Positions 4,735 through 51,813 of a DNA stretch of 64,000 nucleotides are shown here, piece by piece. The DNA is from Selaginella moellendorffii. Taxonomy: Eukaryota; Plantae; Lycopodiophyta. The notes below the pieces were generated by a model. That model was not told the origin of the DNA. It searched no databases and saw only the letters and a program-made list of their open reading frames with translations. Within the stretch, counting starts at the first letter, position 1. Each line of letters opens with the position of its first letter. The stretch is from positions 2,023,882-2,087,881 of the forward strand of contig NW_003314281.1 of the NCBI RefSeq assembly GCF_000143415.4, in the 5' to 3' direction. A program made the translations under genes and the position numbers.

Positions 4735-5240
4735 TGGCATTCATGGTCGACTTATTAGAACTCAACAAAAGCCAGCCAGTTCGTGATAGGAACAAGTGCT
4801 GCGTGTAAAAACAAAATGAAAATACAAAAAATTCTCATTGCGGCGTGCTTTAAGCTTGCTGAATGTACTAAGATTTTCAACGGTAAATAGTTTGGGTGAA
4901 CAAAGTTTGGCAAGAACATATCTTGCAGAGAGATTTTAAGAACTTTGGTAGTTGCTTAGTGTTGGCAAGAAAGTATCTTGAAGAGGAACTTTGGTAGTTA
5001 GTTTAGAGGTTGGTAAGAAAATATCTTGAAGAGCATGGCTCGTGGACGAAGTTAAAGTTTAGTGATTTAAAGAAAGTATCAAGAAGAGCATGGACGACGA
5101 TCAAGAGATTTTAAACTTTATGGTTGTCTCCAGCACGGCCTAGACAAACTTCTCGATCTTTTGACAGTTCTCGAAGATCCAACCTTTACGCCAGCGTAAC
5201 GTCAAAACAAATTGTAATTCGAATAGCTCAGAGATTGAAT

Positions 5241-16800: not shown

Positions 16801-17702
16801 CAAAATGTTGGGTCAATCTCAAGTGAAGTGGCCTCATCTAGTGGCCAAGGCTGCATCTCTACCTCATTTGGATGGGCTTTGTTCTCCACAAGCTTAGAAG
16901 CTATTGTTTTTACTTGAAAACTCATGTGAAGTTTGCTCTTGTTAATAGAGTTGTGTGGAATCTCTGAGCTAAGAAAAATTGGATTTAACACTTCTAGTTG
17001 TGTGAGAAAGTATTGTAAAGTGTCCTCTTGTGTCCTTGTAATAGGATTTGTCTCAAGAAAGTCATTCTCCACAAAAATTGTGTTCTCCTCCAAGTTAGGC
17101 ATTTATGGAATCTCAAGAATCTTGTTTGAATATTTTGCTTCCTTGATCTTGAGTGAGTATGGTGATGTGGAGTAGATAGAGGAGAAGGCAAGGGACAAGG
17201 TTGTCCAGTCTGTATGCAAAAAATTGATCATATTGCATCATAAAGACTAAAATTCCATTATTATGTTGGCAATTGACAAAGAAGCAATATATTGTTGTGG
17301 AGAGTGTCAAGACCCTTGACAAGATCAAGATTGGAAAATGCAAAAAGACAAAGAGAAAAGCTAGTGGAAACAAAGAAGAGGCCTTAGACTGGCGTTGATT
17401 CAGATTGTGGAGAAATGGAACAAGGCTAACCTATATATACTATAGGTTGATGAAGCTCCACCACTCTTGGATCGAGGACGGCCTAAATATAGCTGAGGTC
17501 GAGGAGGCACCACATCATCATCAGGAATGTGGCTCGAGACTTAGGAATCGGGAAGTGTCTCGAGAGTCAGGAATAGAAAAGTGTCTCGAGAATCAGGAAT
17601 AGGGAAGTGTCTCAAGAGTCAGGAATGTGGTCTGTAGGTCAGGAATCCGGCGAGAGTCAGGAATGTGGCAAGAATTGGGGGATTCCTGACAGCACCCCCT
17701 CC

Positions 17703-20700: not shown

Positions 20701-21461
20701 AACACATCCCCAAAATCATGATACTTCTTAGGAAGACTGACAGAAGAAACATGCAAAGCAAAAAGAAAAAGAGGTTCTTCATGAAGGAGTTCTTTCATAG
20801 TGATTGTGGAGATAGGAGGAGGCGTACGATTAAATGGAATGATGAGACGAGAATACGGTCCAGTGTAAGATGGAAGAGAGGAAAAAGAAGAGGGTGAAAA
20901 CTTTATAGAGTCAAGAACAGAACCCCGATTTGAGTTTAGGGAACTTTTCCTGATTCGGACTCGATGAACAGCAAGGGAAGCCGTGGGAGAGATGAGCTGT
21001 AATTCCTTCCAACAAATCTGAGGCTGATGTAGTTGGAACCAAGGAAGACCGAGCACCACAGAGGAGGACTTGCTGTTGATGATGTTGAAGGCGATATCGG
21101 TGACGGTGGACCCGATGTGTACTTGAACGGGCAACGTTTCCCTAAGTCCAGAAGATGGAGACACAAAATGCCCGCTGATGCCTTCAACCCTCAAATCCCG
21201 TATGGTAGGAGAAAGAGGAACGTGATGTCGGGCAGCAAAGTCCGTGTCCATGAAGCAGGAAGTTGCACCCGAGTCCAGTAATGCCAAAGCCTTGAGTCCT
21301 GATTGTCCGGTGAAAGAAAGGAGACATGGGACACGGAAGTTGCGGGAATTGGTGGTGGCTTTGATGAAGGGTGGTGAGAAGCTTGATAAAGAAGAAAAGT
21401 GATTTTTATTCGGGGAGTCCAAACAGACAGCTCCTACTCTATTTGGACAGGGTCGTTTCCC
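17703..21461 (-). pseudogene. Element A pol, -1 frame to gag, one nonsense mutation
   Basis: LLDSGAT protease, YLDD RT, RNase H, integrase and chromodomain (YEVQDIL..YLVDWKGY..TWEP). In-frame TGA at 19454-19452 replaces the conserved Trp (HQAR*AQFL). Confidence 0.9.
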
Positions 21462-22456
21462 GACTGCAATAGAGGTGGACTTTGAGGCAGAGTGAACTCG
21501 AGCAGTCGAGGAGGCTTCTTGGGACATACAGCTGCTTTGTGATTAGGATCAGCACAATAGAGGCAAAGATTATGAGATATTCGACGTTGCTTCTCAGCAG
21601 GACTCAACTTCCCTCTAATGAGTCGGGGAGTACCAGAAATATCCATTGGAACCAGAGCAGTAGGTTCAGGAGTATGCCCCGAAGACTCAAGCTGGGATTC
21701 CTGAGTCTGGGACGGAAAAACAGCGGTGCGGCGACTTTCCTGACGACGTTCAAAGAGACGATTGTCACATCGAACAGCTTTGTTGATGGCATCCGACAAG
21801 TCCTTGGGATCCTCCATGGTGAGCAACAAATCCTTGACACCGTTGTTGAGGCCGAAACGAAATTGGTCAATCAAGGCCCTCTCATCCCACTGAGTGTCCA
21901 AAGCAAGGAGTTGGAACTCTGCAGCGTAGATCGAGGTAGGACGAGACCCCTGAGAGAGACGTCTCATCTTTGTGGTAGCAGCCCGAACCCGATCCGTCTC
22001 ACCAAAACATGCTTCGAGCTTCTCTTTGAACAATTGAAGATCCATCAGCTCTGGAACCACGACCCCTTTCATGCTCTTCTCCAGAAGAGGAGAAAACCAT
22101 GACAAAGCTGCACCTTCAAGCAACATCCCAATCGCGCCGATTTGAGACTCGGGAGTAGGGTACCGCCAATGTTGAACTGCGAAGATCAACTCCATCTGGT
22201 TCAGGAATCTGCGAAGCTCTGAACGCTTGTTTGAAAATTTTGCCGGGAAGCTCACCTTCGGTTCAGGAACTTTGCTGGATCCTTGAGCCGAAAGTGAAGC
22301 AAGCTCTTGCTGCATGTGAAGAAGGGTCGCCTTCAGCTCGGTATTCTCAGACTGGATTTTTGCAAGGACTTCAGCAAAGAAATCAGGATGGCTTGGAGAC
22401 TCCATTGGCAAGAAGAAAGGAAAAAGGGGGAATAAAAGGCAAAGGTAATCAAACAA
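21434..22456 (-). CDS. Element A Gag with CCHC zinc knuckle
   Basis: Retrotransposon gag domain and CLYCADPNHKAAVC. Confidence 0.9.
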   Translation of the reverse strand: MFDYLCLLFPLFPFFLPMESPSHPDFFAEVLAKIQSENTELKATLLHMQQELASLSAQGSSKVPEPKVSFPAKFSNKRSELRRFLNQMELIFAVQHWRYPTPESQIGAIGMLLEGAALSWFSPLLEKSMKGVVVPELMDLQLFKEKLEACFGETDRVRAATTKMRRLSQGSRPTSIYAAEFQLLALDTQWDERALIDQFRFGLNNGVKDLLLTMEDPKDLSDAINKAVRCDNRLFERRQESRRTAVFPSQTQESQLESSGHTPEPTALVPMDISGTPRLIRGKLSPAEKQRRISHNLCLYCADPNHKAAVCPKKPPRLLEFTLPQSPPLLQSGNDPVQIE

Positions 22457-23597
22457 TCAAAACGAGCTAAATCAAAAAACAAAAAAACACAATCTGAATC
22501 AAACTGTCAAGACCCCTGACAAGATCAAGATTAGAAAATGCAAAAAGACAAAGAGAAAAGCTAGTGGAAACAAAGAAGAGGCCTTAGACTGGCGTTGATT
22601 CAGATTGTGGAGAAATGGAACAAGGCTAACCTATATATACTATAGGTTGATGAAGCTCCACCACTCTTGGATCGAGGACGGCCTAAATATAGCTGAGGTC
22701 GAGGAGGCGCCACATCATCATCAAGAATGTGGCTCGAGACTCAGGAATCGGGAAGTGTCTCGAGAGTCAGGAATAGGAAAGTGTCTCGAGAGTCAGGAAT
22801 AGGGAAGTGTCTCGAGAGTCAGGAATGTGGTCTGCAGGTCAGGAATCCGGCGAGAGTCAGGAATGTGGCAAGAATTGGGGGATTCCTGACAGAGAGGAAC
22901 TTGATGGCACTATTTTTTATTTTAACATTGCTACTGAGAGTTTATATGTTTCTTTAAGGGTATAAACTTTTTTATTGATTTTCTTGTCTCAAGTGGTGAG
23001 TTGTGTGTTCAGGAGGTTAAACCATGTAAATTTTTATTTATCTTGTGGTGTTTGAAGTATTTTATACTAGGAGGTTGTTTTCCAAGCTTTAAATACTTTT
23101 TTTTAATTTTCCCATTTTTGCCTTGATAAAAATTCCTCTTCCAATGCTTTTTTTATCCACTTTTTCTTCTTCTACAATATTTCCTCCTCATATTTCTCAC
23201 TTTCTCCTTTTTTCTGATGCTTCAAACTTTTTTTTCTTCTTTAGAGGGGGTAAAAGGGATAGATAAGAGTCCAACTCCAAAGATAAAGTGAGGACAAATA
23301 GATATAGTAGTGAAGCAAAGACGAATAACATAAATTGTGGAGTGAGGACTAACATAGCAAGTTTAAACAGAATATTTAACCCTAACATAATGAGGCTGAA
23401 TAAATGTAGTAGTGGAGTGAGACCTAACATAAATGACAAAGTCCTAATGGAATTGGTGCTTTAAAACTTTTCTTCGTTCAAGGAAGGGAATATAGGATAT
23501 AGAGGACAATTTTGACTTCCTCTATATATAGTGTTAGATGAGGATGAAGGTTAGGAGGGTCAGTTAATATGGGTCTTGGATGTTGACCAAAGAGAAG

Positions 23598-27898: not shown

Positions 27899-28491
27899 TG
27901 TAAGCTCCTGAGTTTGGACTTCCTGGGAGGTCACCCAGCCCAGTACTATTCAAACCCAAGGACGCTTAACCCCAAGTATCCCAAGACCCTTAATCGATTG
28001 GAAAACGGGGTGCACTCTTATTCATGGGCCCTTTCCCTTTATATTTGAACCCCATGGACCGTCTCTCAAGTCGTTCTCTTTGGTTGCTTACAATCCACCA
28101 CGCTTCCCTGCAAGTTCACGCCCTCGTGAATGGAAGTTGAGAGCCGCAGCTCTCTCGAGAGCCTCGCTCTCTTGACACCCTACCCCTCAGGTCGAGCCCA
28201 GCGGGAGCAAACTGGACCAGCCAGATGTCAATCAACATGTGGTGTGATTCCCCTAGCCAACCAATAGAGTCGGACCCGAGACCTCTCTGATACCAAATGT
28301 AAGCTCCTGAGTTTGGACTTCCTGGGAGGTCACCCAGCCCAGTACTATTCAAACCCAAAGATGCTTAACCCCAAGTATCCCAAGACCCTTAATCGATTGG
28401 AAAAGGGGGTGCACTCTTATTCATGGGCCCTTTCCCTTTATATTTGAACCCCATGGACCGTCTCTCAAGTCGTTCTCTTTCGTTACTTACA
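27899..28491 (-). mobile_element. Cassandra-like TRIM (5S rRNA-derived tract in the LTRs)
   Basis: 194-bp LTRs 27899-28092 and 28298-28491, TSD CATAT, Met PBS TGGTATCAGAG, PPT. LTR contains GTTAAGCGTCCTTGGGTTTGAATAGTACTGGGCTGGGTGACCTCCCAGGAAGTCC. Confidence 0.93.
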
Positions 28492-31112: not shown

Positions 31113-32267
31113 TGTATCTAGTAGGCTTTGTCCGTAAACACCGAATCCGAGTGATAATTGACACAGGAGCTACACACAGCGTGATATCCGAAGACTTAGT
31201 TAAGTTGTTAGGATTGAATGCTAAACAAATGTCACCTATGCACTTTCGGTTTGGGGAAGGTGGGCAAGTAGCTAGAAAATTTGTGAGTGATGTTCCAATA
31301 AAAATATCCAAGTGGAAAGAAAGAGTGGACTTGGTAGCGTTGAAGATACCAGATTTTCAGATGGTGTTTGGTATGGACTTCTTCAACAAATATATAAAAA
31401 GAATTTATGGTGCTGAACAAAGTCGTATCACTTTGAAGTCAGAAGGACATCCCGATGTGTCCTTCCAGTTGCAAAAGCACTCCTTAAAGGATTGGGATGC
31501 AAAGTTTCTGATTGCGAGAGCCGCTCAAAAAGCAACTAAGAAGGGATGTTGAACCTTTTGGGTTCAAGTGATGGAATCTAAGAGTGTGGGTGACTTAGTT
31601 CGAATTGGTGATGGAGTTGATCCTATACCAAAGAAGATATTGGAGTTGTTAGCGCGGAATCAAGATATCTTCTTGAAGGATTTGCCATCAGGGCTACCTC
31701 CTAGCTGTGAGGTTGATCATCAGATCGAGGTTATTCTGGGTTCTAAACCACCTACGAAATCTCTGTATCGTTTGAACATCAAGGAGATGGCTGAACTCAA
31801 GAAGCAACTCACAGAACTTCTTGATAAAAGTCATATCCGACCAAGCAAGTCACTTTATGGAGCACCATCCTTTTTATTATGAAAAATGATGGAACGATGA
31901 GGATGTGTATCGACTATTGGGCACTCAACAAGATCACGGTCAAAAACAATTATCTTTTGCCTCGCATTGATGACTTGTTTGATCAACTCTTAAAGGCTAA
32001 GTATTTTACACGACTTGATTTGCAGTCCGGGTATCATTAGATACAGGTGGCAGATCAGGATTTGGAGAAGATAGCCTTTAAGACTTGGTATGGATCTTAT
32101 GAGTTCCTGATCATGCCATTTGGGTTATGCAATACTCTGGCAACATTTAGCACTATGATGGATAGAATATTCGGAGATTACTGTAAGGAACCGACTCCCC
32201 GAGATGTCGTAGGCTAAAGGATCCCCAAAAAGCTTGACCGAAATGACAAAGAGTTCATCGGATGGGA

Positions 32268-32545
32268 CCAAGTCGAGGATCGAGTCCAAGACCGACTCTA
32301 GGACCGAGTTCGAGATAGAGTCCGGAATCGAGTCCGAGACCGACTCGGGGACCGAGTTCGAGTCCGAGTTCGAGACCGAGTTCGAGACGGAGTCCGGATC
32401 CGAAATCGGGTCCGAGACCGAGTCCGAGGTCGAGTCCGAGGTCGGGTCCGAGGTCGGGTCCGAGATCGAGTCCGTGATCGAGTCCGAACCCGAATCCGAA
32501 GTCGGATCCGAAATCGGGTCCGAGATCGAGCCAGAGACTAAGTCC
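32268..32545. repeat. CpG-rich hexamer array (CCGAGT/CCGAGA) in LTR U3; also at 38651-38928 and 39713-39875
   Basis: Direct hexamer periodicity is visible and gives the spurious ESES/SDSD ORFs. Confidence 0.9.
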
Positions 32546-33388
32546 AAATACTAATACGGGTCAAGGGGTGAAAGCCCAAAGCGTGCGTCTCCCAGGGGGG
32601 GGGGGCTGCAGGGGGTTCCAAAAGTATAGTAGGGATAGTGAGGTCCAGGAACCAGTTTAGAAGGGACTCTCCAGTTGGGCTTCCAAACCGACTTGAGGTT
32701 GGGACTGGGACCGAGGGGCCTTGGGTGGGAGTGAGCATGGACTTGGCTGGTGCCGGAGGGGCCATCCAAGGAAGTGCTCAAGAGCAGCTCCCACTCCCGA
32801 AAGGGAAACCGATTGCGGTGCTCCCGGCCCAGGTGGAGTGGTGCCCCACTTGAGTACCTTGTGGCTCATTGGTCCTCGCCCTTCCGGGGGCTTGGGCCTT
32901 TCCTTCGGGATGGAAGTGGGGGGGTAGAGGTACCCATACCGGGCCGTTAGGCCACGGTGTTTCGCCCCGACGTCCCGAAGCAAGTGCTGCACCCAAGGCT
33001 TGGGATTTAGAGGGTCCCATGATCAAGCCTTGTGGTACCTTGGGGTGTTAGGAATCTGGAGGCTTGGTGTGCTTGGCTGCTTGTGCCTGCGGGGAGTGTA
33101 GCCGAACCTTAAGTCCAGTCTAACCCGGGGAGGGGGATTGGGAGAGATTTGGGAATCCGTAGATGGATGGCTAACACTCCGTTGCTCGTGCAGTAAGTAG
33201 CTGAAACCAAGTAGGAGCTGGCACCATAGGCGAGAACCTTGGCGAGGGAACTTAGCACAAGCCAAGGCGGAGTTGGTCGGATAGGCGAGGTAAGCTGGCA
33301 AATTGGAAAGGAAAAATTTGTGGCTTACAATTTGGTATCGGAGCCTCTTCCTCAGTTCTAGCGAAGGATAGAGGCGGATTGCTGGGAG

Positions 33389-36300
33389 ATGGCAAGGGCA
33401 GGACGTAAGCGAACCCAGGCGGAGACGGAACCTCCTCCAGAGCTGGAGCCTCCTGTCGAACAGGAGGCGATGGATGAGGAATCCTTGCATGAGGAGGACT
33501 CCAGTGAGGCAACTTCCAAACAGGAGTCTGGTGGTGAGGTTCGGTCGTCCAAGGCTCGATTGGATGTTCTAGAAGGACAATTGGCACAGACCAATGCCCT
33601 GCTAGAGACTCTCGTACGCAAGCTAAAGCGTGACGAGAAGCGGAAGAAAAAGCGAAAGACTGCGGATGCTGGCAGCGCAGAAGGTGCGGACCCTTCGGCA
33701 GGGACTGAGGCAAAACCAGACAAGGTCGAACAGACCGAAGTGGAATCAGTCCCTCAGGCAGTTCCCAAGTACAAACCGAAGCCCCCACCGGTCTTCAAGG
33801 GAGTGAACGACTATAAGGTGGTGGAGGATTGGTTTTACGATATGGAGGACTACTTCCGAGCGTTGCGATTACCGAGCTCGGAGAAGGTCCCATGTGCAAA
33901 ACCATACTTGGCAGATAATGCCAAGTCTTGGTGGAGAACAACGGAGGCCAACGAAGGACCGGTGGCCACTTGGGAAATGATGAAGGCGAGGATCCGCGCA
34001 ACATACGTTCCTCCGAATGCCACTCTGCATCTGAGAGATGAGCTGAGTAGGCTGAAGCAGACTGGAACCATCCAGGAATATGTGAATGGGTTCATGGCAA
34101 AGAGGATACTTGTCACGGACATGGGGGATATGGATGCGTTCCATGCCTTTATATCAGGTTTGCAAACCTGGGCTCGCGGTGAGGTGATGCGCTGGAACCC
34201 GACCAACTACAAGGAAGCGTTGGATGCGGCCATCAAGGTGCATTTCAACGATAACCTGCGAAAGGGGAACACGACGGGGTCGGGATCCACGTTTCACAAA
34301 GGGGCCAAACCGAGGGGAACATATAGCAGGGGGAAATTCAAGAAGAGTTTCTCTAAGAATGAGTCCTCGGGATTCCGGAAAGGCAAATCCGGTGGCCAGC
34401 GAGCAAGTACGTGGGGGAGTCAAGCGAAAAGAGACAAACCCACGGATAAGAAGGTCAAGTCATATAGCAGCGTGGGAAACAACGTATGCTACAACTGCGG
34501 TGAAGCGGGACACTTTTCGAGGGAATGTCCCTACCCGAAGAAGGCCAGAGCCAATATGGCCATCAAGTCGGGTGAAGTCCAAAATGAGGTATGTGATCCA
34601 GTCCCTAACTCAAAGTTACTCATTACACGAGCAACTTTGGTAGAGAGTCGTTCGCGACATCTACTAGCCCTCCGAGGGAAGCTCGGAGGTAGCGTTGTTA
34701 AGATCCTTATTGACACGGGTGCTTCGGATAATTTTGTGGCTGCAAACATAGTCCGGCAAGCCGGACTAACGGTGCAGCGGCTAGGCGAACCAAGGACTAT
34801 AGAGTTTGTTCAAGGTAGCCAAAGCACCGATGAGGTACTTCGACAAGCGAGAGTCGAAGTGGGGACTTGGAAGGTGGACATGGATTTCACCGTGTTGGAC
34901 ATGGCGGGATTTGACGTGATCTTCGGAATAGACTGGTTCAATCGATTCGTGGTAGCCCTGCATGGTCAAGGTAGAAACCTTGTGGTACTGGCGAATGCCC
35001 AAGGAAGAAGATCTAGGGTGGAAGCCCAGGATCTAAAGGTAGGGCAAAGCAAGGCCAAAGAATCCTGCTTAAACCTGGTGTCCACGAGAGGACAACTCAC
35101 TAAAGGACTAAGGCAGCCTTTTTGTGCTTACTCTCGGTGAAGAGTGACAAAAAGACAAGAACGGGAGAAGTGCCTTTAGTGATCCAGCGAGTGTTGGACC
35201 AATTCCAGGATACCATGCCGGAGGAGCTACCGGCGGGGTTGCCCCCCGCACGACCGATAGAACATAAGATTGAGCTGGTCGAGGGCGCTGAGGCAGTGGT
35301 TCGTCCACCCTATCGTTTGAACGAAAAGGAACTCAAGGAGCTCAAGTGCCAACTAGAGGAGTTGGTGGACAAAGGGTATATTAGGTTGAGCAAGTCGCCG
35401 TATGGGGCGCCGGTATTATTTGTGAAAAAGAAAGATGGATCTATGCGCATGTGCATAGATTACCGGTTGCTCAACAAGTATACCAAGAAGAACAAGTACC
35501 CTTTGCCAAGGATTGAGGACCTGTTCGATAGGTTGGGAAAGGCAAAATACTTCTCGAGGATTGACCTAAGGTCAGGATACTACCAGATCAGGGTAGCTGA
35601 GGAAGATGTCGAGAAGACAACCTGTCGAACAAGGTATGGGAGCTTTGAGTTTCTAGTGATGCCCTTTGGGCTCTGCAATGCGCCGGCAACGTTTTCGGCG
35701 TTGATGAACCACATCTTTGTACCCTATCTGGATCACTTCGTGGTCGTCTATATTGACGACATCCTGATCTATAGCGAGACGCTAGAGGAGCATGCCGAAC
35801 ACTTGGCGAAGGTGTTTGAGAAACTAAGGGAACACAAACTGTATGCTAAAGAGAGCAAATGTGACTTTGCTCAACAAGAGGTAAAGTTTCTCGGGCATGT
35901 GGTGGGCCAGGACGGGCTCAAGGTGGACCCGGAGAAGGTCCAAGCGATCCAGGAATGGGAGCGACCATCGAATGTACATGAGTTGAGGGCGTTCCTGGGG
36001 CTATGCAACTACTATCGAAAGTTTATCAGACACTATTCGAGAGTAGCCCTGCCCTTAACGGACCAAACAGGAAAAGGGAAGATGGTATGGACAGCAGAAT
36101 GCGAGGCGGCATTCGTCCACCTCAAAGGGAAGTTGAGGAAGGCTCCCGTATTGGCATTACCAGACTTTGGTAAGGACTTTGAGGTAGAAACGGATGCTTC
36201 GGACTTTGCGTTGGGCGCAGTTTTGAAGCAGGACAACCATCCGGTAGCGTTCTTCTCGAAGAAGCTGGACAAGGCTCAACGGAAGTGGCCTGCCCACGAG

Positions 36301-38161
36301 AAGGAATTGTTTGCGGTGGTCAAGGCACTCAAGGAGTGGCGACACTACCTTGGGAGACACTTCAAGGTTTACACGGACAATGTGGCAACGAAACACTTCT
36401 TGTCACAGCCCGACCTAAAAGGGAAACAAGGTCGGTGGGCCAATGCCTTGGCTGAGTTTGATTGCGAGATTCTGTACAAGCCTGGGAAGAGCAACATCGT
36501 GGCGGATGCGCTAAGTCGAAAAGCGAGCTTGAGGTTGGCAATATCCAGCGCAACAGCAACCTTCTGGGACGATGTGCGGACAGCATATGAGAACGATGGT
36601 CTAGCACAAGAAGTGTTGCTGAGGAATCTAGAGGCGCGGGAAGCTCACCAGAGGGGTGAGCTGCCAACGGAAGAGAAAACGGGCTATGCGGAACGCAACG
36701 GACTCATCTATTACAAGCAAACGAGGGTGTATGTTCCAGAAGGGGAACTAAGGAAGGTGGCCTTAGAAGAGTGTCATGACGGACCTCTTGCGGGACACGG
36801 CGGAGTGCCCAAGACAATGGGCTTACTCAAAAGGAAGTACCATTGGCCAGATATGGCTAAGGACATCCAAGACTATGTAAAGACATGCCCAACATGTCAG
36901 CAGGTAAAAGCCGTGACTAAGGCTAGTGGGGGCTTGTTGCAAAGCATCCCCATTCCAGATCGCCCGTGGAAATGTCTTACGATGGACTTCATCACGGGAC
37001 TCCCCCCAAGCGAGGGGTTTGATGCGATATTCGTGGTGGTGGACCGATTTTCGAAAATGGCACATTTCATACCCACCACAACGGAAATGTGGATGCGGAA
37101 GGTGTGGCGAAGCTGTTCTTCGAACAAGTGGTTCGAGTGCGGGGAAGGCCGGAAGAGATTATCTCAGATCGAGATAAGATCTTCACCAGTAGGTTCTGGA
37201 GGACTCTCCTGGAACAGTATCGCACCAAGTTGAAATTCAGCACAGCCTATCACCCACAGACAGGTATGGGGTATTGAGTCAAGTTGTTGGCACTAACACT
37301 TCTTGACAGACGGACAAACGGAAAGGGTGAATAGGCAGCTGGAGGATTATTTGCGATGCTATGTCTCGGGAGACCAGACCGATTGGGTAAGTCATTTGGG
37401 ACTTGCGGAAATGTGTTATAACAACTCACCACATTCGAGTATCGGGGTGAGTCCATGGGAAGTCATCAATGGGCGAGCTATTGAAGGTCCTGTGGAACTC
37501 GGCGTGGCCGAGTATCATGGAGAGTTGCCCGCGGTGGAGGCATTCACGGCGGAAAGACTCAGCATTTGGAATCTAGTGAGGGATTCCTTGGAACGGGCTC
37601 AACAAAGGCAAACCAAATACGCGAACCAGAAGCGTCGGGATGTAGAGTTCCAAGCTGGGGAGAAGGTGTGGCTGAACACCAAGAACCTCAGACTACCAAG
37701 TGGGATCAGTCGAAAGTTGACCCAAAGGTAAAGATGCATGTATTCCCGTAAATGAATTGATCTTGAGTTCCTTAAGCAGGTTCGCGGGGCCTTACGAGAT
37801 TGAGGCACGAATCGGTAAAGTGGCTTACCGACTCCGACTTCCTCGAGAGATGGGGAAGATGCACCCAGTGTTCCACGTGAACTTACTCAAGCCGTACTTT
37901 GAGGATCCGCTTCGCAAGGACCAAGTGAGACCTTTACCTGAGGTTATCCAAGGGGAAGAGGAATACGAAGTCGAGGCCATCCTCAATGCGCGCAAGAGCA
38001 AGCGACAAGGACGCGAGGTGAGAGAGTTCCATGTGAAGTGGAAAGGATTTCCACACTGCGAAGCAACATGGGAACCGGAGGAGAACCTAGCGAACGCGCG
38101 AGATCTAGTGGAGGAATTTCTGCAAGGCAGAACTCTATGTACTTATGCAAAATTCAATTAA
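33389..38161 (+). CDS. Element D Gag-Pol with introns 37264-37309 and 37728-37779 and apparent frameshifts near 35110 and 37087
   Basis: [31 protein letters not shown], spliced [12 protein letters not shown] and RKLTQRFAGPY, chromodomain YEVEAIL..VKWKGF..TWEP. Confidence 0.85.
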
Positions 38162-38255
38162 AAATATCAGTTTGCAAAGTTGAGCTAATGGCATATGTTG
38201 GGACCCGAAGGCGCGCCAAAGGTAAGCTAATTAGCATGGGTTGGATAGGTCGACC

Positions 38256-38500
38256 AGGCGTAGGGCACTACGCCCGACTCCCCGCGGGGATGTCGAATCC
38301 GTAGACGTATTCTACGGAGGTTGGGTTCGAGTCCCAACCCCCTAGTAAAGCAAGGCTGGGTTCAAGTCCCGACCCTATACTAGGGCGTGGTGAAGTGAGG
38401 AATATAGGGACACCTATATTCCGTTGTCATGGGCTCTTGGCCGGGGAGGCTAACTTAGGCACACCGCTAAGTGGGGGGATGCCCCCGGAGACATGGACAA
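38256..38500 (+). ncRNA. Putative structured cis-acting RNA in the 3' UTR of element D
   Basis: Series of hairpins including two T-loop hairpins and a multi-stem module that covaries with 43341-43456 and 43525-43637. Confidence 0.7.
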
Positions 38501-39712
38501 CAAGTCGTAGGATAAAACGAGACGTTCGATGTGGGCATCGAACTTCTTCTATGGGTGGTGGAGTTGTAAGGAACCGACTCCCCGAGATGTCGTAGGCTAA
38601 AGGATCCCCAAAAAGCTTGACCGAAATGACAAAGAGTTCATCGGATGGGACCAAGTCGAGGATCGAGTCCAAGACCGACTCTAGGACCGAGTTCGAGATA
38701 GAGTCCGGAATCGAGTCCGAGACCGACTCGGGGACCGAGTTCGAGTCCGAGTTCGAGACCGAGTTCGAGACGGAGTCCGGATCCGAAATCGGGTCCGAGA
38801 CCGAGTCCGAGGTCGAGTCCGAGGTCGGGTCCGAGGTCGGGTCCGAGATCGAGTCCGTGATCGAGTCCGAACCCGAATCCGAAGTCGGATCCGAAATCGG
38901 GTCCGAGATCGAGCCAGAGACTAAGTCCAAATACTAATACGGGTCAAGGGGTGAAAGCCCAAAGCGTGCGTCTCCCAGGGGGGGGGGGCTGCAGGGGGTT
39001 CCAAAAGTATAGTAGGGATAGTGAGGTCCAGGAACCAGTTTAGAAGGGACTCTCCAGTTGGGCTTCCAAACCGACTTGAGGTTGGGACTGGGACCGAGGG
39101 GCCTTGGGTGGGAGTGAGCATGGACTTGGCTGGAGCCGGAGGGGCCATCCAAGGAAGTGCTCAAGAGCAGCTCCCACTCCCGAAAGGGAAACCGATTGCG
39201 GTGCTCCCGGCTCAGGTGGAGTGGTGCCCCACTTGAGTACCTTGTGGCTCATTGGTCCTCGCCCTTCCGGGGGCTTGGGCCTTTCCTTCGGGATGGAAGT
39301 GGGGGGGTAGAGGTACCCATACCGGGCCGTTAGGCCACGGTGTTTCGCCCCGACGTCCCGAAGCAAGTGCTGCACCCAAGGCTTGGGATTTAGAGGGTCC
39401 CATGATCAAGCCTTGTGGTACCTTGGGGTGTTAGGAATCTGGAGGCTTGGTGTGCTTGGCTGCTTGTGCCTGCGGGGAGTGTAGCCGAACCTTAAATCCA
39501 GTCTAACCCGGGGAGGGGGATTGGGAGAGATTTGGGAATCCGTAGATGGATGGCTAACACTTCGTTGCTCGTGCAGTAAGTAGCTGAAACCAAGTAGTAG
39601 CTGGCACCATAGGCGAGAACCTTGGCGAGGGAACTTAGCACAAGCCAAGGCGGAGTTGGTCGGATAGGCGAGGTAAGCTGGCAAATTGGAAAGGAAAAAT
39701 TTGTGGCTTACA

Positions 39713-42700
39713 ACCGAGACCGGAACCGAGACCGGGACCGAGACCGAGACCGAGACCGAGATCGGGACCGAGACCGAGACCGAGGCCGAGGCCAAGACCG
39801 AGCCCGAGCCCGAGTCCGAGTCCGAATCCGAGTCCGAGTCCGAGTCCGAATCCGAGTCCGAGTCCGAGTCCGGAGCCTGAGAGGGTGAAAGCCCAAAGCG
39901 TTCGTCTCCCAGACCCTGGGGGGTTTGGTGAGCTCCAAAAGTATAGTAGGGGGAGGACTGCAGTGGAGCCAGTTTGGCCAGGAAAGGCCAGTTTGGCCCA
40001 GGAAGGCCGGACCCAGTGTTGGGTGATGAGCTGCCCACTGGGAAGTCCAAGACTAGAGTGAACACGGACTGACAAGTGGGGTAGCTTGGTGAAGTGTTCA
40101 AGAGCCGGCTCTAGTTCCCCCGGGAGATCGACTGGGCGATGCTCCCAATCCAAGTGTGGGTGGCACTACCTACTTGGATACCTGGTGTGGCTCAACGGAA
40201 CCCGCTCTAAGCCCATGGCTAGAGCACCCAAGGGCAGAAGGCGAGGAGAGTACCCAGGTGGCTCGCGTAAGGCCACGGTGTTCTGAAATGTTGTCCCAAA
40301 GGCCCAGACTGTGGAAAGGAAGAGGAGCAGTCCTCTGGGGTAGTGACCAAGGACACAGTCGTGTGGTGAGGAAGTCCCAAAGGACTGTGGGACTTAGTGG
40401 TCGGGCCTGTGGGTCTCGATCCAGTGGCAGTGTTGGCAAACACGACCAGGGGCAGAAAGGGACTTAGTGGGGACTGACAGAGGGATATTGGGGAAGGCTA
40501 TCTCCTTGTCGGTGGGCATCCTAAGGATGCTAAGGAGTGGATCTGAGATGACCACTCATGGATGGTTTGCCTAGTCTTGGAGAGCCAAGACTGTGATGCA
40601 AGTGGTATTGGACTACCAGTGTGGCAAAGGTGATTGGGCATGGCCTTAGCGTAACGGGCTGCTATGTCGGTGGTACCTTTGAGTGTCGGTCATGGGATCG
40701 GACACGTGGAGCACTTGGACCAAGTGCAAATGTTGAGTGGCATGGATGCCATTCTCGGGGCTAGCAAGTCCCAAGTCCTGGATTGGACTTATGGAGGTTG
40801 TGAATGAGACTCCTCCAAGTGGTCGGAGGTGTGGTTAAGTGACTAAAGTAGAATGGAAATTTTAGTCGCTTACAATTTGGTATCAGAGCTGTTCCTTAGT
40901 GTGACTTTTATTGGTGCTCAAGTATATCACCACTAGTGTTGGCATCGGAAGGTCCAAGGAGTGGGCCTATCCTTGAGGAGTAGCAAGTCGGGAAGACATG
41001 GCTCTCCATTACAGTTCATGTGTGAACTTGTAGACGAGGTGGTGGATAGAAAAGGGTCAATAATGGAACGATTTTGGGATCTTGGGAACAGTGCAAGGTT
41101 TTCCTCATATAGTTGAGGTTGGTGCTCATGAATGTGAGACCAAAGGTAATGACCGTGGAAGGTCAAATACGGAAGAGGACTCAAGTCCTTGAAATGGTAG
41201 CCGGGGCTACCTTTAATAAATGCTGGAACAACCCAAGGAGTTGGGGGGTGTACTTAGAGATGAGTGGTATTCCCATCGCATGGACAAGTAGTCCTAAGGG
41301 GCAAAAGTTGCCCCCAGAGAACAAAATCAAGTGTCGGAGTAACACTTGTGAAAATAGTCCTTTTGAGTAGGACAGGAATGCAAGAAGTGTATTCCAGTGA
41401 GCTAGTGCCTCACAAGTAGGACCTTACGGGTCGGTGGATTAACCAAGTCCAAAACTGCTGGATGACTCAAGTAGAGTCAAGGGATGGTCCTAAAAGGACT
41501 GATGGAAGCATTTGGACTGAGGTGTGTTGTACCCCACAAAGGATGGGGGGGGGGGGGGATCATAAGATTCAAGGATGAGAATAGAGAGTATCTTATCGAT
41601 GGCAAAATGTGCCATGCTAAAGTTATGGGAAAGGTGTTTCCAGAAGAAAACAACTTTGACACAAAGTTGTGTGTGACCTCTATGGTGTAGTGCTAACGGA
41701 TGGTTGGCATGAGAAAGAGCGGTGTTGGTCTTGGCAAAGACTTAAACACGAAGGGGAAGTGTCATAGAGGTAGGCTCGTGGAGTTGATGGTGTGAAGACA
41801 CCAAATGTGCCAAGATGTGATACCTTGAGGCTATGTTGGTGGGTTCATGAGAACCCCTTGCCAAAGGAATCCCAATGGAAATGGGAATGGCATAGCCTAA
41901 GCGGCAGAGCATATAGTTGGAGTGCGGTGACCCAGATAATGATGGAGGTGTGCAAGCACCAAGCAATGAGTTGTAGGACTTGACAATTATGAGGAAACTA
42001 AGCAAGAGGTGCAAAATAACTGGTTAAACGGGTAGAAGGTAGCTACCCAAGACTTCTAGCATAGGGAAGTCGGATATACCCTTACGGGGGATAAGTTACT
42101 TGTGTTGCGATATAGTAGGTCAATGTCATAAAAGGAAATACTCATTGTCAAGAAAGCCATCATTGGGACACCCGAACACTCTAGAACACCAGAAGGTGGT
42201 GTTTGATGTCGCGAGGGTAATGGATAAAGCCCAAGGGACTAAGTCCCTAGCGAATGATGGATAGAAGGTGCTATCCAAATGTCCAAGGTTGCGGAGACAG
42301 GAGAGGACTGTCTACCCGAGTTGGACAAAGCCAAAAATGGAATTTTGGCAAGGCTAGTGATGGGCATGTAAAGGCCCATAAGCAACAATGTAATCCCAGT
42401 GTGTTGGATTATAAGGTGAGCATACCCGGATTGAGGAACCACTCCCTAGGTTATTGGGTAGGTTCATCCCTAAGAATACTTGCTAAGGCATGATAGAAAG
42501 TGCAAAGCTATCCTCCTGGTCTGGAGGAGAATGACCAAAGGAAAGGTGTGAAGCCAAAAAGCAAGAAGTAAAGGGATAGAACCGAACCATAGGAATCAAA
42601 GGGCATAACCAAGGTTGGTTATGCCAGCTGGGACTGGAGAATCAAGAGGGTGCTCGAGGATGTTGTTGCTAACAACCGTGATGCCATAGAGAGTCTAAAA

Positions 42701-44543
42701 TATGGAATTGTCCATGTTAGACTATATGGCAACTATAAAGCTTGCGAAAGGGGAGGCCTTAGCAAGCTGAGGGACAAAGTTCCTTCAAGGTTCCCAAAGA
42801 CGATTCTAGGTAGCATAGTACCTAGAAAGGCCAAGTGTAAATGGTTCATGGAACGCGCGAAATCAGAGTGGCGCAGCAGAAGCGTGGTCTTGAAGCTTGC
42901 CATGAGGCAAGGTTATCAAGGTTAGGGAAGTAGTTCCCGAGTGTTCAAAGAGAGGGCTTTGAACAAAAGTTGATGGTCAAGGACTTTCACGCTTATGCAG
43001 GAACCATGTTACAATGGTCGGAGAACTTGCCAAGTGAGATTGGCACGTCGGGGGAACAAAGACCCTAGTTGAAGGTGATAACTTCAAAAAGGGTGGGCCA
43101 TGGGGCCGAGCATGGAGGAGTCCATGCATGATCACAGACATGTCAAGTGAGAGGACTTGGCAGTGTGGAGGAACTAGGTTCCTAAGCTGTGATCTGTAGC
43201 GCGCTTTAAAAATAGGTTGGTGCACCGGTGTGGGGAGTCACACCAGGCATCTAGTGTGATGCCGTCCGTAGATGCATATACGGAGGTTGGGTTCGAGTCC
43301 CGACCCTCTACTGCTTGGGTTCGAGTCCCAAATCACTAGGGCGTGGTGATGGTTTGGAATATGAGGACACTCATATTTCGGTGGTCATGGACTCTCAGTG
43401 GGGAGACTGGTTTGGGCACACCGCCAAGCGAGGGATGCCTCGGAGTCGTGATGCACGGTTAGATTGCTTAGTGTGAAAGCTCAGCATATCTAACTTGAAC
43501 ACTTTGGTGCAAGTGGCACCAAGGTCGTGGTGAGTGAGATGGGGACACCTAATCTCAGTTGCTATGAACCCTTGGCCGTAAGGGCTAGCTTGGGTGCACC
43601 GCCAAGTGTGGGGGATGCCCCCGGGGTTATAGTCAACAACTTGGAGGTCTAGAAAACCAAGTACCTCTTGGCAACTCTGTTAAGGTGCCAAGGTGAGATC
43701 ACTAGGTGATCTTATGGCCAGATAAGGACAAGGTCCTTGGTTGGCTAAGGAATGAAGTTCCTGGTTCAAAATGTTGAAATTGAACTGTTTAAGGTGGTGT
43801 GGCTTGGTCGTGATAACCAAGTGGGAAGAGCACCTAAGGGAAATAAACTATGTCCGTGCGATGGCATAGTGAGTCCGAGGAAAGTAGTCTCTATAAAAGA
43901 CCCATGGGAGGGTCACGAAGTTGGGCCGTGGATAGAGCCCATAGCAGAAGATGCTAAAGAGACGTACTAGGGGTGAACGTCCTCCGGACTTGGCAAAGAA
44001 GAGTCTTTGCTATGGAACCGAAACAATACCTCAAGGAGGGAGGTAGAGATTCGATGTTGCTTGGTGCAACAATCAACGGATAGGAGCAAAAGATGAGTGG
44101 CCAAGATAGGGCCGTGGAATCCCTTGGAAGGAATCCAAGTGACAAAGTTAGGCGAGGAACACTAATGTGTTGGACACTAACAAGTTGCGGGAAAGGAAGT
44201 GTGTTTCCAAGGAGGGATTCCGAAATGCTCCGATTTGGCGAAAGTGGAAGCTCCAAGGGAGGGAGCGGTAAGGTAGCCAAATGATAGGGCCATGAACAGC
44301 CCTAGCACAAAGTATGATAACTGGAACTTTGGCACGAAATAGAAGAGAGGATGATGGTGCCCTCGAGTAGAGAACTTCCTAGGATGGGAAGTGGAGTTGC
44401 ACAAAAGGTGCAAGGCAAGGTGTCGGAGACACCTAGGAAATTGACTCCAAGAAGTCAAAATTCAAAGTTCCAAAGTGCAAAGGTTATATCGATGGAAATT
44501 GAGACTACTCGAGAAGGAGTAGTGGGATTGACTTAGAGAAGGG
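39713..44543 (+). mobile_element. Element D': non-autonomous (LARD-like) relative of D, 5'-truncated LTR, runs into the N gap
   Basis: LTR remainder 39713-40874 ends GCTTACA, followed by PBS TGGTATCAGAGC. The 3.7-kb interior has no recognisable gag/pol but contains D-like 3' UTR modules. Confidence 0.78.
43225..43637 (+). ncRNA. Homologous structured RNA region in D' (T-loop pair plus two copies of the multi-stem module)
   Basis: Same order of stems and loops as 38256-38500, with compensatory substitutions. Confidence 0.7.
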
Positions 44544-44643
44544 NNNNNNNNNNNNNNNNNNNNNNNNNNNNNNNNNNNNNNNNNNNNNNNNNNNNNNNNN
44601 NNNNNNNNNNNNNNNNNNNNNNNNNNNNNNNNNNNNNNNNNNN
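44544..44643. other. Assembly gap; probably hides the 3' end of D' and the RT-RH part of C2
   Basis: Run of 100 N. Confidence 1.
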
Positions 44644-47133: not shown

Positions 47134-47687
47134 TGTAAGCTCTTGAATTTGGACTTCCCAGGAGGTCACCCAGCCTAGTACTATTCAAACCCAAGGACAC
47201 TTAACCCCAAATATCCCAAAACCCTTAACCAATTGGAAAAGGGAGTGCACTTTTGTTCATAGGCCTTTTCCTTTTATATTTGAACCCCATGGATCGTCTC
47301 TCGAGTCGTTCTCTTTGGTTATTTACAATCCACCACGCTTCTCTACAAGTTCACGCCCTCATGCGCTCTATTGACACCCTACCCTCGAGTCGAGCCCAAC
47401 GGGAGCAAATTGGACTAGCTAGATGTCAATCAACATGTGGTGTGATTCCCTTAGCCAACCAACAAAGTCAGACCTAAGACCTCTCTGATACTAAATGTAA
47501 GTTCTTGAATTTAGACTTCCCAGGAGGTCACCCAACCCAATACTATTCAAACCCAAAGACACTTAACCCCAAATATCCCAAGACCCTTAACCAATTGAAA
47601 AAGGGGGTGCACTCTTGTTCATGGGCCTTTTCCCTCTATTTAAACCCCATAGATCGTCTCTTGAGTTGTTCCTTTTGGTTGCTTACA
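47134..47687 (-). mobile_element. Cassandra-like TRIM, third copy, in the 3' LTR of C2
   Basis: LTRs 47134-47327 and 47496-47687, TSD GTGGG/ATGGG, 5S-like tract, internal deletion relative to 27899-28491. Confidence 0.9.
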
Positions 47688-50529
47688 ATGGGATTGTACT
47701 GGACTTTTATTTCATAGCGTAACGGGCTTGGAGTTCAGCTCCAAATTCAGGTGCGCTACACTTATATAGCTTTTTTATAAAAGTTATATTTGACTAAGTA
47801 AATCACTTTATAAAACACTAGTCTTTTTTGTTATGAAAGAGGATGGTACTATGAGTATATGTATCAATTATTGGGCTCTTAACAAGATCATAGTCAAAAA
47901 CAATTATTGTTTGCCTCGTATTGATAACTTGTTTAACTAACTCTTAAAGGTTAAGTATTTTATGTGAATATCATTAAATATGGGTGGCAGATCAAGATGT
48001 GGAGAAGACAACCTTTAAGACTTGTTACGGGTCTTATGAGCTCCTTGTTATATTATTTGGGTTATATAATGTTATAGTAACATTCAATACAATAATGGAT
48101 AGAATATTTTGAGATTATTTGGACACATTTGTTGTTCTATATATCAATGATGTTCTAGGCTTTAATGAAAAGTTGGAGGATCACTTAAAACACTTAGAGT
48201 TGGTGTTTCAAAAGTTATGAGAGAATAAATTATATATTAAGGAGATTAAATGCACTTTTAGTCAATTACGTGTGAAATTTCTTGGGAATATAGTTGGTGA
48301 TGGCATAGTCGAGATGGATCTAAAGAAAGTGGAAAGTGGTGAAGTTCTAAGATATCCTAACCACTGTATCAAATGTTCATTCTTTTTTTGGTTTGACAAA
48401 ATACTATTGCAAGTTTATTCATAATTTTGCAAGTATTGCTTCCAATAAAATTGTGATAATGTGGTTGGTGTTATGCTAAAGCAATGCAATTATCATATTG
48501 CATTTTACTCCAAGAATTAGATGAAACTCAACAAAGATAGCCTACACACAAGAAAAAGATCTTTGTTATAGTGTCGGCACTAAAACATTGGAGACATTAT
48601 TTGGGTGGACATACCAAGGTTTATACAAATAATAACATACTAAGTTACTTTGCAATGCAGCCAAAGCTTATGCTAAAGCAGGCTTATTGGCAAAAAAAAC
48701 TTGCTAAATTTAATACTGAAATCATTTATAAACTTGATAAAAACAATGTTGTTCTAGATGCATTGAGTTGTCAAGTGTAATTTCAAACAATGTCAACAAT
48801 CAATTTAGACTGGTTAGAGGATGTTCAGGTTTTATATGAAAGTGATTCGTTGGCAAAGGCATCTTGCATGGCACTGTACACTATGGATATTGCTCATCAA
48901 GGGGAGATTTGTCCACTATCAGATGTTGTAGATGGTGCACTTGAGTATGAAGTTGAAACTATTTTAGATTCCTGATTTCAAAGATGATCTCATATGAAGG
49001 AATATCTTATTAAGTGAAAAGATTACTTTTGTAACACTTTGTAATAAATCTTGCAAATCAATAAAATAATATATTTCTTTTAATCCAAAATTTGTTTTGT
49101 TCATTAGTTTTAGGTTAGTTTTAGTAAACTAAATTTGGCACTTTGATGTATAGGTTCAATTTATAGCCATAAGGATAATTATTATAGACTAATCACATCA
49201 CCTCTCTTTTGTTGACCCATTTTTTAAAAAGGGTGTGCTTATGTAAATAACTTCATCTATTAGTTTATAATAGTTGTTTAAATCTTCTCAATAGGGTTGA
49301 TTTCTACTAAAGGGAGTTGGGCCTTTGGCTCTCTCCTTATATCCCTACAAGCATGGATGTATCATTGGTTTGTAAACTAAGTGGTACTCGGAGCAATAAG
49401 GGTGGTGTTGCTAACTGGTTTGACATCTACAAATTTTATTAGAAATTTGTTGAAGTAAGCTGATGTTTACATGAAAACTAGTGAGAAAGTTACTTTTTTT
49501 TATAGATTTTAGTAACTTTCAAAAAGATAATAAAGCTTCACCATACCTTAATTCTCTTTCCTAAAGGACCATAAATGTAAACTATTAGGATTCTATCTTT
49601 TACACCCTATTATCTTATCCTATTATTCTAACCTGGTGCCTAACCATCTAGACAAAGCAAAAGACAAATGAGTCCTTGATTCTTGTAGAAAAAGGAAGTA
49701 GCAATGCCAAGGGAGCACAATTGTATCTAAGTAAAACTTAACAGCAGTGTTAAAGCCAAAATCCACTAGGGACAAAATGGAACCAACTCTAAAACTAGAA
49801 AGAAATCAACTGAAATAACCTCTTGACTTCCCATGTCAATCAGTCCCTAAAACCTCCAGGGATAACTTTCTGACAAGGCTCATACACTTTGATAACTTGA
49901 TGCTTGCTTCAAACATTCCACTCTATAAAAACCTAGACACCATATCACAAGCCTTTAAAACGTTTTAGCATTTTCATTGCTTTGTTTGTTTTAGGGTTTT
50001 TTTTGGGTATGGTGGAATAGACATAGGCACTAGAATTGGGGGTAAGGGGGAACTTGAAAATTTCTCTCGCTCTCCCATCGTAGTGTCTTCACAGCAACCG
50101 CATTGTCTCCCTCGTCCACGCCTTTGTCGCACTTGTGCATTGCATGCTCTCTCTCCATGACTGGCACCGGCCCTTCTCTTGCCTTGCCCACGCAGGTGAG
50201 AGGAAGAAATTCTCACACCTGAAAGAAAGATGAGATCTTCGGAGCAATCAAGGTATCATCTACGATTTCTTGTGCTGTCTTATGAAAAGCCTCACTCTTT
50301 CTAGTTTTAGCTGGCTTTAGTTGGGGATTTCGGCCTTAACGTTGCTCCAGTTTTACTCGGACGCATTTCAGCCATATCCCCTCAAAAGGGAGAGTAACAA
50401 ACCTCCATCTCTCATGAACACGGTAAACCAGCTTCTTTCTCTTCCAACACAACGACAAGTTTTTCGATGTAGTGCAGAGGAGAACCAAAGATTCCTGTTG
50501 ATTTAAGGGTTAAGTTTAGGGTTACGGTT

Positions 50530-51813
50530 ATGGCGGTCAGGAGGTTTTTCAGGAAGTTTTTCAATCGAACATCAGAGCCGAATGATCTGGCGGTCAGGAA
50601 GTTTTACAATCGAACATCAGAGCTGAATGATCTAAGGAATCACCTCACTCCCGTGGACATCGGGCATCCGGGTAAGATGGTTCTTGTGACGGGGCCAAGG
50701 CAATCGGGCAAATCGGCGCTTCTTCAAGAGTTCTGTTCTAGGCAGCGTGCCGGCGACTACCCTGGTGTTCCAGCCTTCGTTGACATGCGGGAGTGGAGCA
50801 ACATCGACCCCTCAAAGTTTTGGATTAACTTAGGTGCCAGTTTTGAAAAGTCTCTTCAGCTCAAAGGAAAAGCGCCTGCAAAGCTGGGTCTCAAAGTCTT
50901 TTCGATGCCGAAGCTACGGCGACTTGGTTTGGGTCTCGATGTCGTGTCTTCGAAGCAGGATCCCATCGGCAGGGTGATGGCTGGTTTAGAGGAGTACACG
51001 TCCGCCATGAGAATGGACATGCCGGGTTTCCTCAATGGATTTCCCACGATATTCATCGACGAAGCTGATGCTCTGGCTAGCTGGACCAGAACCGCAGGGG
51101 GTGTTCAGGAGCTGGATTACCTATTGCGGTTCCTGGTGCGGATCTCTAAGCAGGAGAATGCAGCTAACGTGGTTTTGGCTTCATCAGAAAACTTCTTTAA
51201 GAAATGGTTGTGTGACATGGAACCCTTCCTTGGTCATAAGGTCGTCCGCGCAAGTGTTGGTCACTTCAACGAAGAGGAGGCCAAAGAGTTCGTGAGGCAG
51301 GGCCTCCAGGAATCAGACTTGAACCGGGAGGGGCTTGAAGCGGAGGTGCTTGCGATTTGGGATGACGTTTATGCTCACTACGGGGGAGCCATTATGTTGC
51401 TGTATGATCTTCTCCACATGGCACTACGCTCACAGCCTGGTGAAGTCTGCAAAAACTGGGAGGTGGCGAAGCAGCAGTGCATGAACGAAGCGACGTGCCT
51501 AGTCGAAGAAGGTTTTCATCCTAACAATATGGGCAAAGCTAACAAGATGGTCAAAGCTGCTGCGTGGACGCCTGATGACTGGAAGAATGTGGTGGGAGCC
51601 ATGGCAGCTACCGAGGATGGAGTTCTCCCCTTCCATTCACTGTCTGTGTCTGGTCTTGAATCAATGGTCCGTTACAATTTCCTCGAATACAGGGAGCCGA
51701 CCGGTTGGGACAAAGACATCAAAGCCATATCGACTCCGATCTTCATGCCAGTCACAAGAGCTCAGCATCTGGCAATGAGACAAGTTGTAACTCGACCCAG
51801 TCGACACAACTGA
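50530..51813 (+). CDS. P-loop NTPase of the ATPase_2 (archaeal ATPase/STAND-like) type, intronless
   Basis: FYNRTSELNDL (FxxRxxE), Walker A GPRQSGKS, Walker B IFIDEAD, VVLASS sensor, YGG in the helical region. Confidence 0.8.
   Translation: MAVRRFFRKFFNRTSEPNDLAVRKFYNRTSELNDLRNHLTPVDIGHPGKMVLVTGPRQSGKSALLQEFCSRQRAGDYPGVPAFVDMREWSNIDPSKFWINLGASFEKSLQLKGKAPAKLGLKVFSMPKLRRLGLGLDVVSSKQDPIGRVMAGLEEYTSAMRMDMPGFLNGFPTIFIDEADALASWTRTAGGVQELDYLLRFLVRISKQENAANVVLASSENFFKKWLCDMEPFLGHKVVRASVGHFNEEEAKEFVRQGLQESDLNREGLEAEVLAIWDDVYAHYGGAIMLLYDLLHMALRSQPGEVCKNWEVAKQQCMNEATCLVEEGFHPNNMGKANKMVKAAAWTPDDWKNVVGAMAATEDGVLPFHSLSVSGLESMVRYNFLEYREPTGWDKDIKAISTPIFMPVTRAQHLAMRQVVTRPSRHN

Follow-up and report, generated by a model that had tools for sequence, protein, structure and literature searches.

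The window analysed here, a stretch of 64,000 nucleotides from a gene-dense plant genome (Selaginella moellendorffii), raises the question of what a compact fold is doing just upstream of the purine tract of one LTR retrotransposon (element D), and why a relative with no recognisable coding sequence (element D') carries it as well. The original prediction took the fold to be a cis-acting element of the genomic RNA, a claim that is well supported by covariation, by a bias towards the sense strand and by its being the sole internal sequence that D' retains; we consider it very probable that the module is a functional cis RNA element. Which function it serves can be answered with less confidence, and the answer depends on the elements that carry it.

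Element D (32182..39712, forward strand, as are all features below unless stated otherwise) is a young Ty3/gypsy chromovirus of 7.53 kb with LTRs (32182-33329 and 38565-39712) that are 1148 nt long, end in TG..CA and differ at 5 positions. A tRNA-Met PBS (33333-33344) and the gag start (33389) follow the 5' LTR, and a purine tract of G11 (38553-38563) precedes the 3' LTR. It encodes gag (with a CCHC knuckle in Gag), protease, RT, RNase H, integrase and a chromodomain; the reading frame is interrupted near 35105 and 37086, and three ORFs span 3886, 318 and 309 nt, with the Pfam Chromo match in the last. In a quick RT tree of 43 rows, D groups with four unnamed proteins (SH-aLRT 93), and this group is sister (97) to a clade of ~1540-aa elements bearing angiosperm names, which we take to be Galadriel. 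The anatomy fits that of SM1-Galahad in the part of its publication available to us (PMC3350952): 7.53 vs. ~7.5 kb, LTRs of 1148 vs. 1076/1146 nt, a poly-G tract and a Met-type PBS in both, a main ORF of 3886 nt from start to stop vs. 3885 bp, and later ORFs of 318 and 309 nt vs. 316 and 309 bp, with the chromodomain again in the last; the match is one of description (size, ORFs, PBS) and not of sequence identity. The family is a very abundant one: in a single DNA run 66,288 contigs fell on 5.3 kb of D, and depth in that run is similar over pol and over the module. A second chromovirus in the window (17305-22892, minus strand), with 388-nt LTRs, one stop in pol and an RT that groups with fungal and vertebrate elements (Tcn1-like), has no module.

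The core of the module, recognised by sequence, fold and covariation, occurs once in D (38386..38501) and twice in tandem in D' (D'1, 43342..43456; D'2, 43526..43637), so that its retention and duplication in D', claimed at the outset, holds; the stems, loops and positions described then are likewise all present in these three cores. In the common fold, an unpaired CGTGGTGA is followed by a 9-10 bp hairpin with a GACA loop and by an interrupted helix of 13-14 bp closing three hairpins, which makes a four-way junction in all three copies. The parts lie in D at 38386-38393 (invariant strand), 38399-38422 (P2, the GACA hairpin), 38423-38437/38487-38501 (P3, the closing helix), 38438-38452 (P4), 38453-38472 (P5, with its loop at 38459-38466) and 38473-38486 (P6); the GACA stem of D'2 has a single bulged A. 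Folded alone, D reaches -51.9 kcal/mol (z = -4.0) and takes the common fold (-51.3), which lies 2.0 (D'1) and 5.4 kcal/mol (D'2) above the MFE in the other copies. Fold z-scores alone fail to single out the module, as many windows of D and D' beat their shuffles. The leading strand, predicted to be invariant, is indeed the same in the three copies, but at the final A of CGTGGTGA 2-4% of the family depth carries another letter. A covariance model built from the three cores (R1) found no fourth copy in the window.

The stems change yet keep pairing, as had been proposed: in the model-fitted alignment the tool counts 11 of 39 pairs altered on both sides, a number that 0 of 500 shuffles reach and that drops to 0-4 in slid controls. 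With pairs set by hand, the comparison of D with D'1 (37 pairs) has 23 unchanged, 5 changed on one side and 8 changed on both sides with pairing kept, and 1 broken; the corresponding numbers are 28, 4, 6 and 0 for D and D'2 (38 pairs) and 18, 6, 11 and 0 for D'1 and D'2 (35 pairs). When the same substitutions are scattered at random, a mean of 8-12 pairs break (P ~2-4e-5 in all three pairwise comparisons); both alignments lean to structure and hold only three related copies from one host, and the margin is wide. The 192 stem cells comprise 171 Watson-Crick pairs, 16 G-U and 1 C-A, and this G-U bias points to sense-strand RNA rather than a DNA hairpin. Changes on both sides are found also in the long-range helix P3, where palindrome correction in DNA would not readily produce them. 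Among 27 rows of family variants, 8 are A>G or T>C; stem pairs survive in 5 of these, 2 lie at unpaired positions and 1 falls in a weak 2-bp segment, which is weak support for pairing because A>G in an A-U pair always yields G-U. The other 19 are mostly CG/CHG decay, and the two CG letters in the loop of P5 are among them (up to 8%).

The unit that D and D'1 share begins ~130 nt before the core, with three hairpins and two T-arm-like hairpins. This upstream chain spans 38257..38385 in D (T-arm-like hairpins 38319-38339 and 38356-38372, loops TTCRAGT) and 43227..43341 in D'1 (43285-43305 and 43315-43331), giving each unit two T-arms with a 7-nt T-loop, and loose ends in reads suggest family members with a further such hairpin; D'2 repeats the core alone, without canonical T-arms. 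Covariation is weaker here than in the core (3 changes on both sides and 3 breaks in 38 pairs, P ~0.01). Against Rfam, the chain of D'1 gives two sub-threshold matches, to tRNA-Sec (E = 3.3) and to the tymovirus TLS (E = 9.1). The module is internal, an acceptor arm, a 3'-terminal CCA and a full tRNA fold are absent from it, and ARAGORN finds only a tRNA-Lys at 5240. When D is scanned against D' in 200-nt windows, the module region scores 242-467 where the null maximum is 129, and the remaining internal windows of D score at most 142, except the PBS-adjacent one; LTR, PBS region and module unit are thus the only parts well above the null, with flanks diverged past alignment.

Element D' (39713..44543) consists, as far as it is visible, of a 5'-truncated LTR related to that of D (39713-40874), a PBS (40878-40889) and a non-coding internal region that runs into an assembly gap (44544-44643), which hides its 3' end; the element is at least 4.8 kb long, with 900 nt or more between its module and that hidden end. 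The 3.6 kb after the PBS yield 0 Pfam matches in six frames and none by tblastn, which bears out, for the part up to the N gap at 44544, the claim that D' has lost recognisable coding sequence. LARD elements reportedly have a conserved internal structure, said to have been described by Kalendar in 2004. D' resembles them in being likewise longer than 4 kb, with an LTR and a PBS and no coding region (PMC4350172, in the part accessible to us), and differs in that a discrete module is common to D' and a putative autonomous partner, D' being visible to the assembly gap only. At 39712-39713 the 3' LTR of D abuts the truncated LTR of D' without a target-site duplication, and this junction is either a recombination product or an assembly join. 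Further strong predicted hairpins of D' (42900-43220 and 43640-43730, z down to -5.4) are absent from D. A fragment at 42862..42888 of D' resembles the 5' end of a tRNA and ends in GCGTGGT, the same letters as the invariant strand of the module; it agrees at 18 of 19 letters with a small RNA of wheat catalogued as a novel miRNA. We take the fragment to be the 5' end of the plant initiator tRNA, probably captured from the primer tRNA; a full initiator tRNA was not found in the sequence collections searched.

The LTRs hold a candidate partner for the module. A 13-nt block, present in the 5' LTR (32949..32961) and 3' LTR (39332..39344) of D and identical in the LTR of D' (40270..40282), is complementary to both invariant module strands, and it is the longest of six exact blocks of at least 9 nt common to the two LTRs downstream of a TATA-like box. 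Its left half can pair with the leading strand (GCCACG with CGTGGT, -10.1 kcal/mol) and its right half with the P5 loop (CGGTGT with ACACCG, -8.7 kcal/mol), 6 bp each with an overlap of 2 nt, against -6.1 kcal/mol for the local pairing of strand and loop. Random 13-mers fit both strands at a frequency of 9e-5, the match having been noticed before it was tested. Scored regardless of conservation, the block is the top site among 7,061 windows in D and among 918 in the D' LTR; of the 4,571 in D' only the D'2 loop region itself outranks it, and the change in the D'2 loop leaves a G-U pair with the block. Because the tRNA-like fragment ends in GCGTGGT like the invariant strand, the block is complementary to that fragment too (42882-42888). 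Module strands and LTR block are all invariant across D and D', with zero covariation between them in these two elements. In D the block sits in a local hairpin of -16.6 kcal/mol and remains there on cofolding, and cofolding pairs block and module only in D'1; the local pairing partner of the block differs between D and D', the block itself being identical. Depending on where the R/U5 boundaries fall, it may lie at one or both ends of the RNA.

The same strands enter the local pseudoknot of the original prediction, in which TGGTG pairs with CACCG of the P5 loop. The complementarity stands (by chance in 1.1-2.3% of random 8-mers), but its five pairs are identical in all three copies and, since they never vary, covariation lends them no support. 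Predictions leave the loop of P5 open in D and D'1, and in nested folding the invariant strand takes other local partners in D'1 and D'2. We lean towards the local pseudoknot being formed. Since the invariant strands pair better with the LTR block, the likeliest role shifts from export, which had been suggested, to end-to-end pairing. Dimerisation, another early suggestion, loses ground: its palindrome type is not conserved, a palindromic loop occurring in D'2 only.

We therefore tentatively favour, at a little short of an even chance, a model in which the module joins the ends of the RNA via the LTR block as a signal for reverse transcription or packaging. Directly supported in it are the covarying scaffold, its retention by the non-coding D' and the complementarity. 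The scaffold would present CGTGGT and the P5 loop, these would rest in the local pseudoknot, and the Gag nucleocapsid would swap that pseudoknot for pairing with the LTR block, with the T-arm mimics serving as putative protein-recognition sites; such a three-way pairing would account for three invariant strands amid covarying stems. In Ty1, reverse transcription cannot be initiated without pairing of CYC5 with CYC3, and the D stem of the primer is a further complement of CYC5 (PMC4974528, consulted in part). The likeness extends to complementary segments near the presumed two ends of the RNA and to a 5' partner with complementarity to the primer tRNA or, here, to the tRNA-like fragment of D'. 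In contrast to Ty1 and Ty3, as that part of the source describes them, the 5' partner here is an LTR segment upstream of the PBS, and the 3' partner is divided between two strands on a 250-nt covarying scaffold with T-arm mimics, the pairing being predicted. The module may work like the end signals of Ty1/Ty3 or like the MusD MTE, which is an analogy and not an assignment to either. End-joining, export and packaging are not mutually exclusive roles.

The most serious rival is that the module acts in nuclear export or stability of unspliced RNA in the manner of the MusD MTE or a CTE, the functional tertiary contact being the local pseudoknot. We regard this as possible but distinctly unlikely to be the main role, and what keeps it serious is a pair of intron-like inserts in the integrase of D: one of 46 nt (37264..37309, GT..AG, with a CTAAC branch-like motif) and one of 52 nt (37728..37779, GT..AG). 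Both are poorer in G+C than the sequence around them, interrupt conserved integrase motifs and cause a frameshift, and both are absent from homologs and from two other elements in the window. The published main ORF of SM1-Galahad ends at a stop inside insert 1, so that the inserts look family-wide, and the published ORF lengths match retention of both (PMC3350952, in the part available); section 2.1 of that paper treats the integrase as an ORF followed by two short ones and mentions neither a structure in the 3' UTR nor an LTR partner nor a non-coding derivative, and introns and splicing are not named in the main text. If the inserts are introns, integrase would come from spliced RNA and unspliced RNA would be copied, hence the need for unspliced-RNA handling invoked in the original prediction; retention in the published ORFs would likewise mean that intron-retaining RNA must be exported and copied.

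The inserts are candidate introns only, which weighs against export. None of the best 15 of 106 joints (one DNA run, counting incomplete) skips them, and a scan for host-type short introns, with criteria that were too strict, missed both. In RNA runs, 12 and 1 reads fell on D (two runs) and 0 on the module (a third), with about 12% of each run read, no joints and no control gene. A separate candidate, an intron at the gag-PR/RT junction, was ruled out, as homology continues through it. An older relative in the window has neither inserts nor module, which agrees with export, but this co-occurrence is one comparison with a decayed element. Export would also leave the conserved complementary LTR block and the T-arms unexplained. 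The MTE requires a kissing contact and a pseudoknot (PMC5767303), and MTE, CTE and RTE are likewise structured cis elements of LTR elements, in RNA that must leave the nucleus unspliced (PMC5767303, PMC12786077; accessible parts of both); the counterpart of their tertiary pairing would be the candidate pseudoknot. The likeness is one in kind only, the export role here being a candidate one, and the module has no Rfam match. According to the accessible part of a 2025 review, export of plant LTR-retrotransposon RNA has not been directly studied, and plant elements are generally intron-less, with Ogre and EVADE as exceptions (PMC12786077).

A bolder form of the end-joining model would bring the inserts into it. 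The module could be a three-way RNA switch, in which the tRNA-mimicking strand and the loop alternate among local pseudoknot, LTR pairing and exchange with the primer tRNA, and which would couple end-joining and priming to the selection of unspliced genomes. We hold this to be unlikely, at roughly one chance in several.

Slightly less likely still is a stand-alone packaging or tRNA-mimic signal, in which the T-arm mimics and purine-rich loops serve as direct binding sites for Gag or reverse transcriptase and the LTR match is incidental, taken together with a variant in which the primer tRNA docks on the P5 loop, after the manner of the bipartite PBS of Ty3. The two T-arm-like hairpins of D and D'1, the further one suggested by loose ends, and the weak tRNA-Sec and tymovirus TLS likeness fit such a signal. 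A T-loop mimic is known from box B of bromoviruses. The 7-nt TTCRAGT loops give the T-arm hairpins a likeness to viral tRNA-like structures, as described in the part of PMC10424219 available, from which the module differs in being internal, in having no acceptor arm or 3' CCA, in its two tandem T-arms and in staying below Rfam thresholds. The CCHC knuckle in Gag and the PBS segments that Ty3 has in its 3' UTR (PMC4974528, in part) fit as well. Against it, D'2 keeps the core without canonical T-arms, the loop pairs weakly with the tRNA-like fragment (-6.5 kcal/mol), and a signal present in spliced and unspliced RNA alike cannot alone explain retention of the inserts.

Two readings are highly improbable. 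The motif GGTTCRAGTCC, which matches the B-box consensus, occurs twice in D, twice in D'1 and nowhere else in the window, and tandem B boxes might recruit TFIIIC/Pol III at the DNA level, as a promoter or chromatin barrier, the folds being a by-product or the outcome of palindrome correction. However, an A box 30-60 nt upstream of a B box is missing, the A-box-like matches all falling between the B boxes or past them; D lacks a T4 terminator over 2.5 kb, and the core is free of B boxes. The G-U bias and P3 covariation need single-stranded sense RNA. A translation enhancer or a self-cleaving ribozyme of an undescribed class would suit the compact four-way junction, the invariant tetraloops and the possible pseudoknot, but D' has no protein to translate, Rfam match and hammerhead core are both absent, and cutting just upstream of the purine tract would presumably break the template. 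Neutral shared descent with no function, for which the many windows of D and D' that outfold shuffles and the restriction to three alignable copies might speak, is scarcely credible with 8, 6 and 11 changes on both sides against 1, 0 and 0 breaks in a sequence whose neighbours have diverged past alignment.

That the module matches no described motif, as originally stated, agrees with Rfam 15, in which no family reaches its gathering threshold and no hit covers the core, and with the literature, where the texts searched, mostly from outside the subscription journals and without figures and supplements, gave no account of such a fold. Model R1 recognised 0 of 100 scored loci in viral contigs (98 of at least 120 loose-pattern loci plus 2 T-loop-pattern loci) and 0 of 37 T-loop-pattern loci in metagenome contigs, which were mostly tandem tRNAs, and the pol protein of D has no relative in the viral contigs; since the search patterns were narrow, absence of homologs elsewhere does not follow. 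The window has other RNA-like matches on its minus strand: four sub-threshold Rfam matches to 5S rRNA in two paired repeats (27902-27989, 28301-28388, 47137-47224 and 47499-47586), of a kind that Cassandra-type elements carry, and a cluster of three C/D-box snoRNA-like matches at 420-782 (snoR77Y, below threshold). It also has long open frames at 50473-51813 and 61953-63827, with an archaeal-type/STAND ATPase domain and a glycosyl hydrolase family 1 domain.

The cis signals for export, packaging and priming of plant LTR-retrotransposon RNA are largely undefined, and a covarying fold with a named LTR partner and a natural deletion derivative gives probing and compensatory experiments something definite to work on. 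The inserts would imply that a very abundant family makes integrase from spliced RNA and copies unspliced RNA, as retroviruses do. If true, the three-way switch would give plant LTR retrotransposons their first replication signal with a defined structure, and it would account for the survival of spliceosomal introns inside an integrase despite mass copying through RNA.
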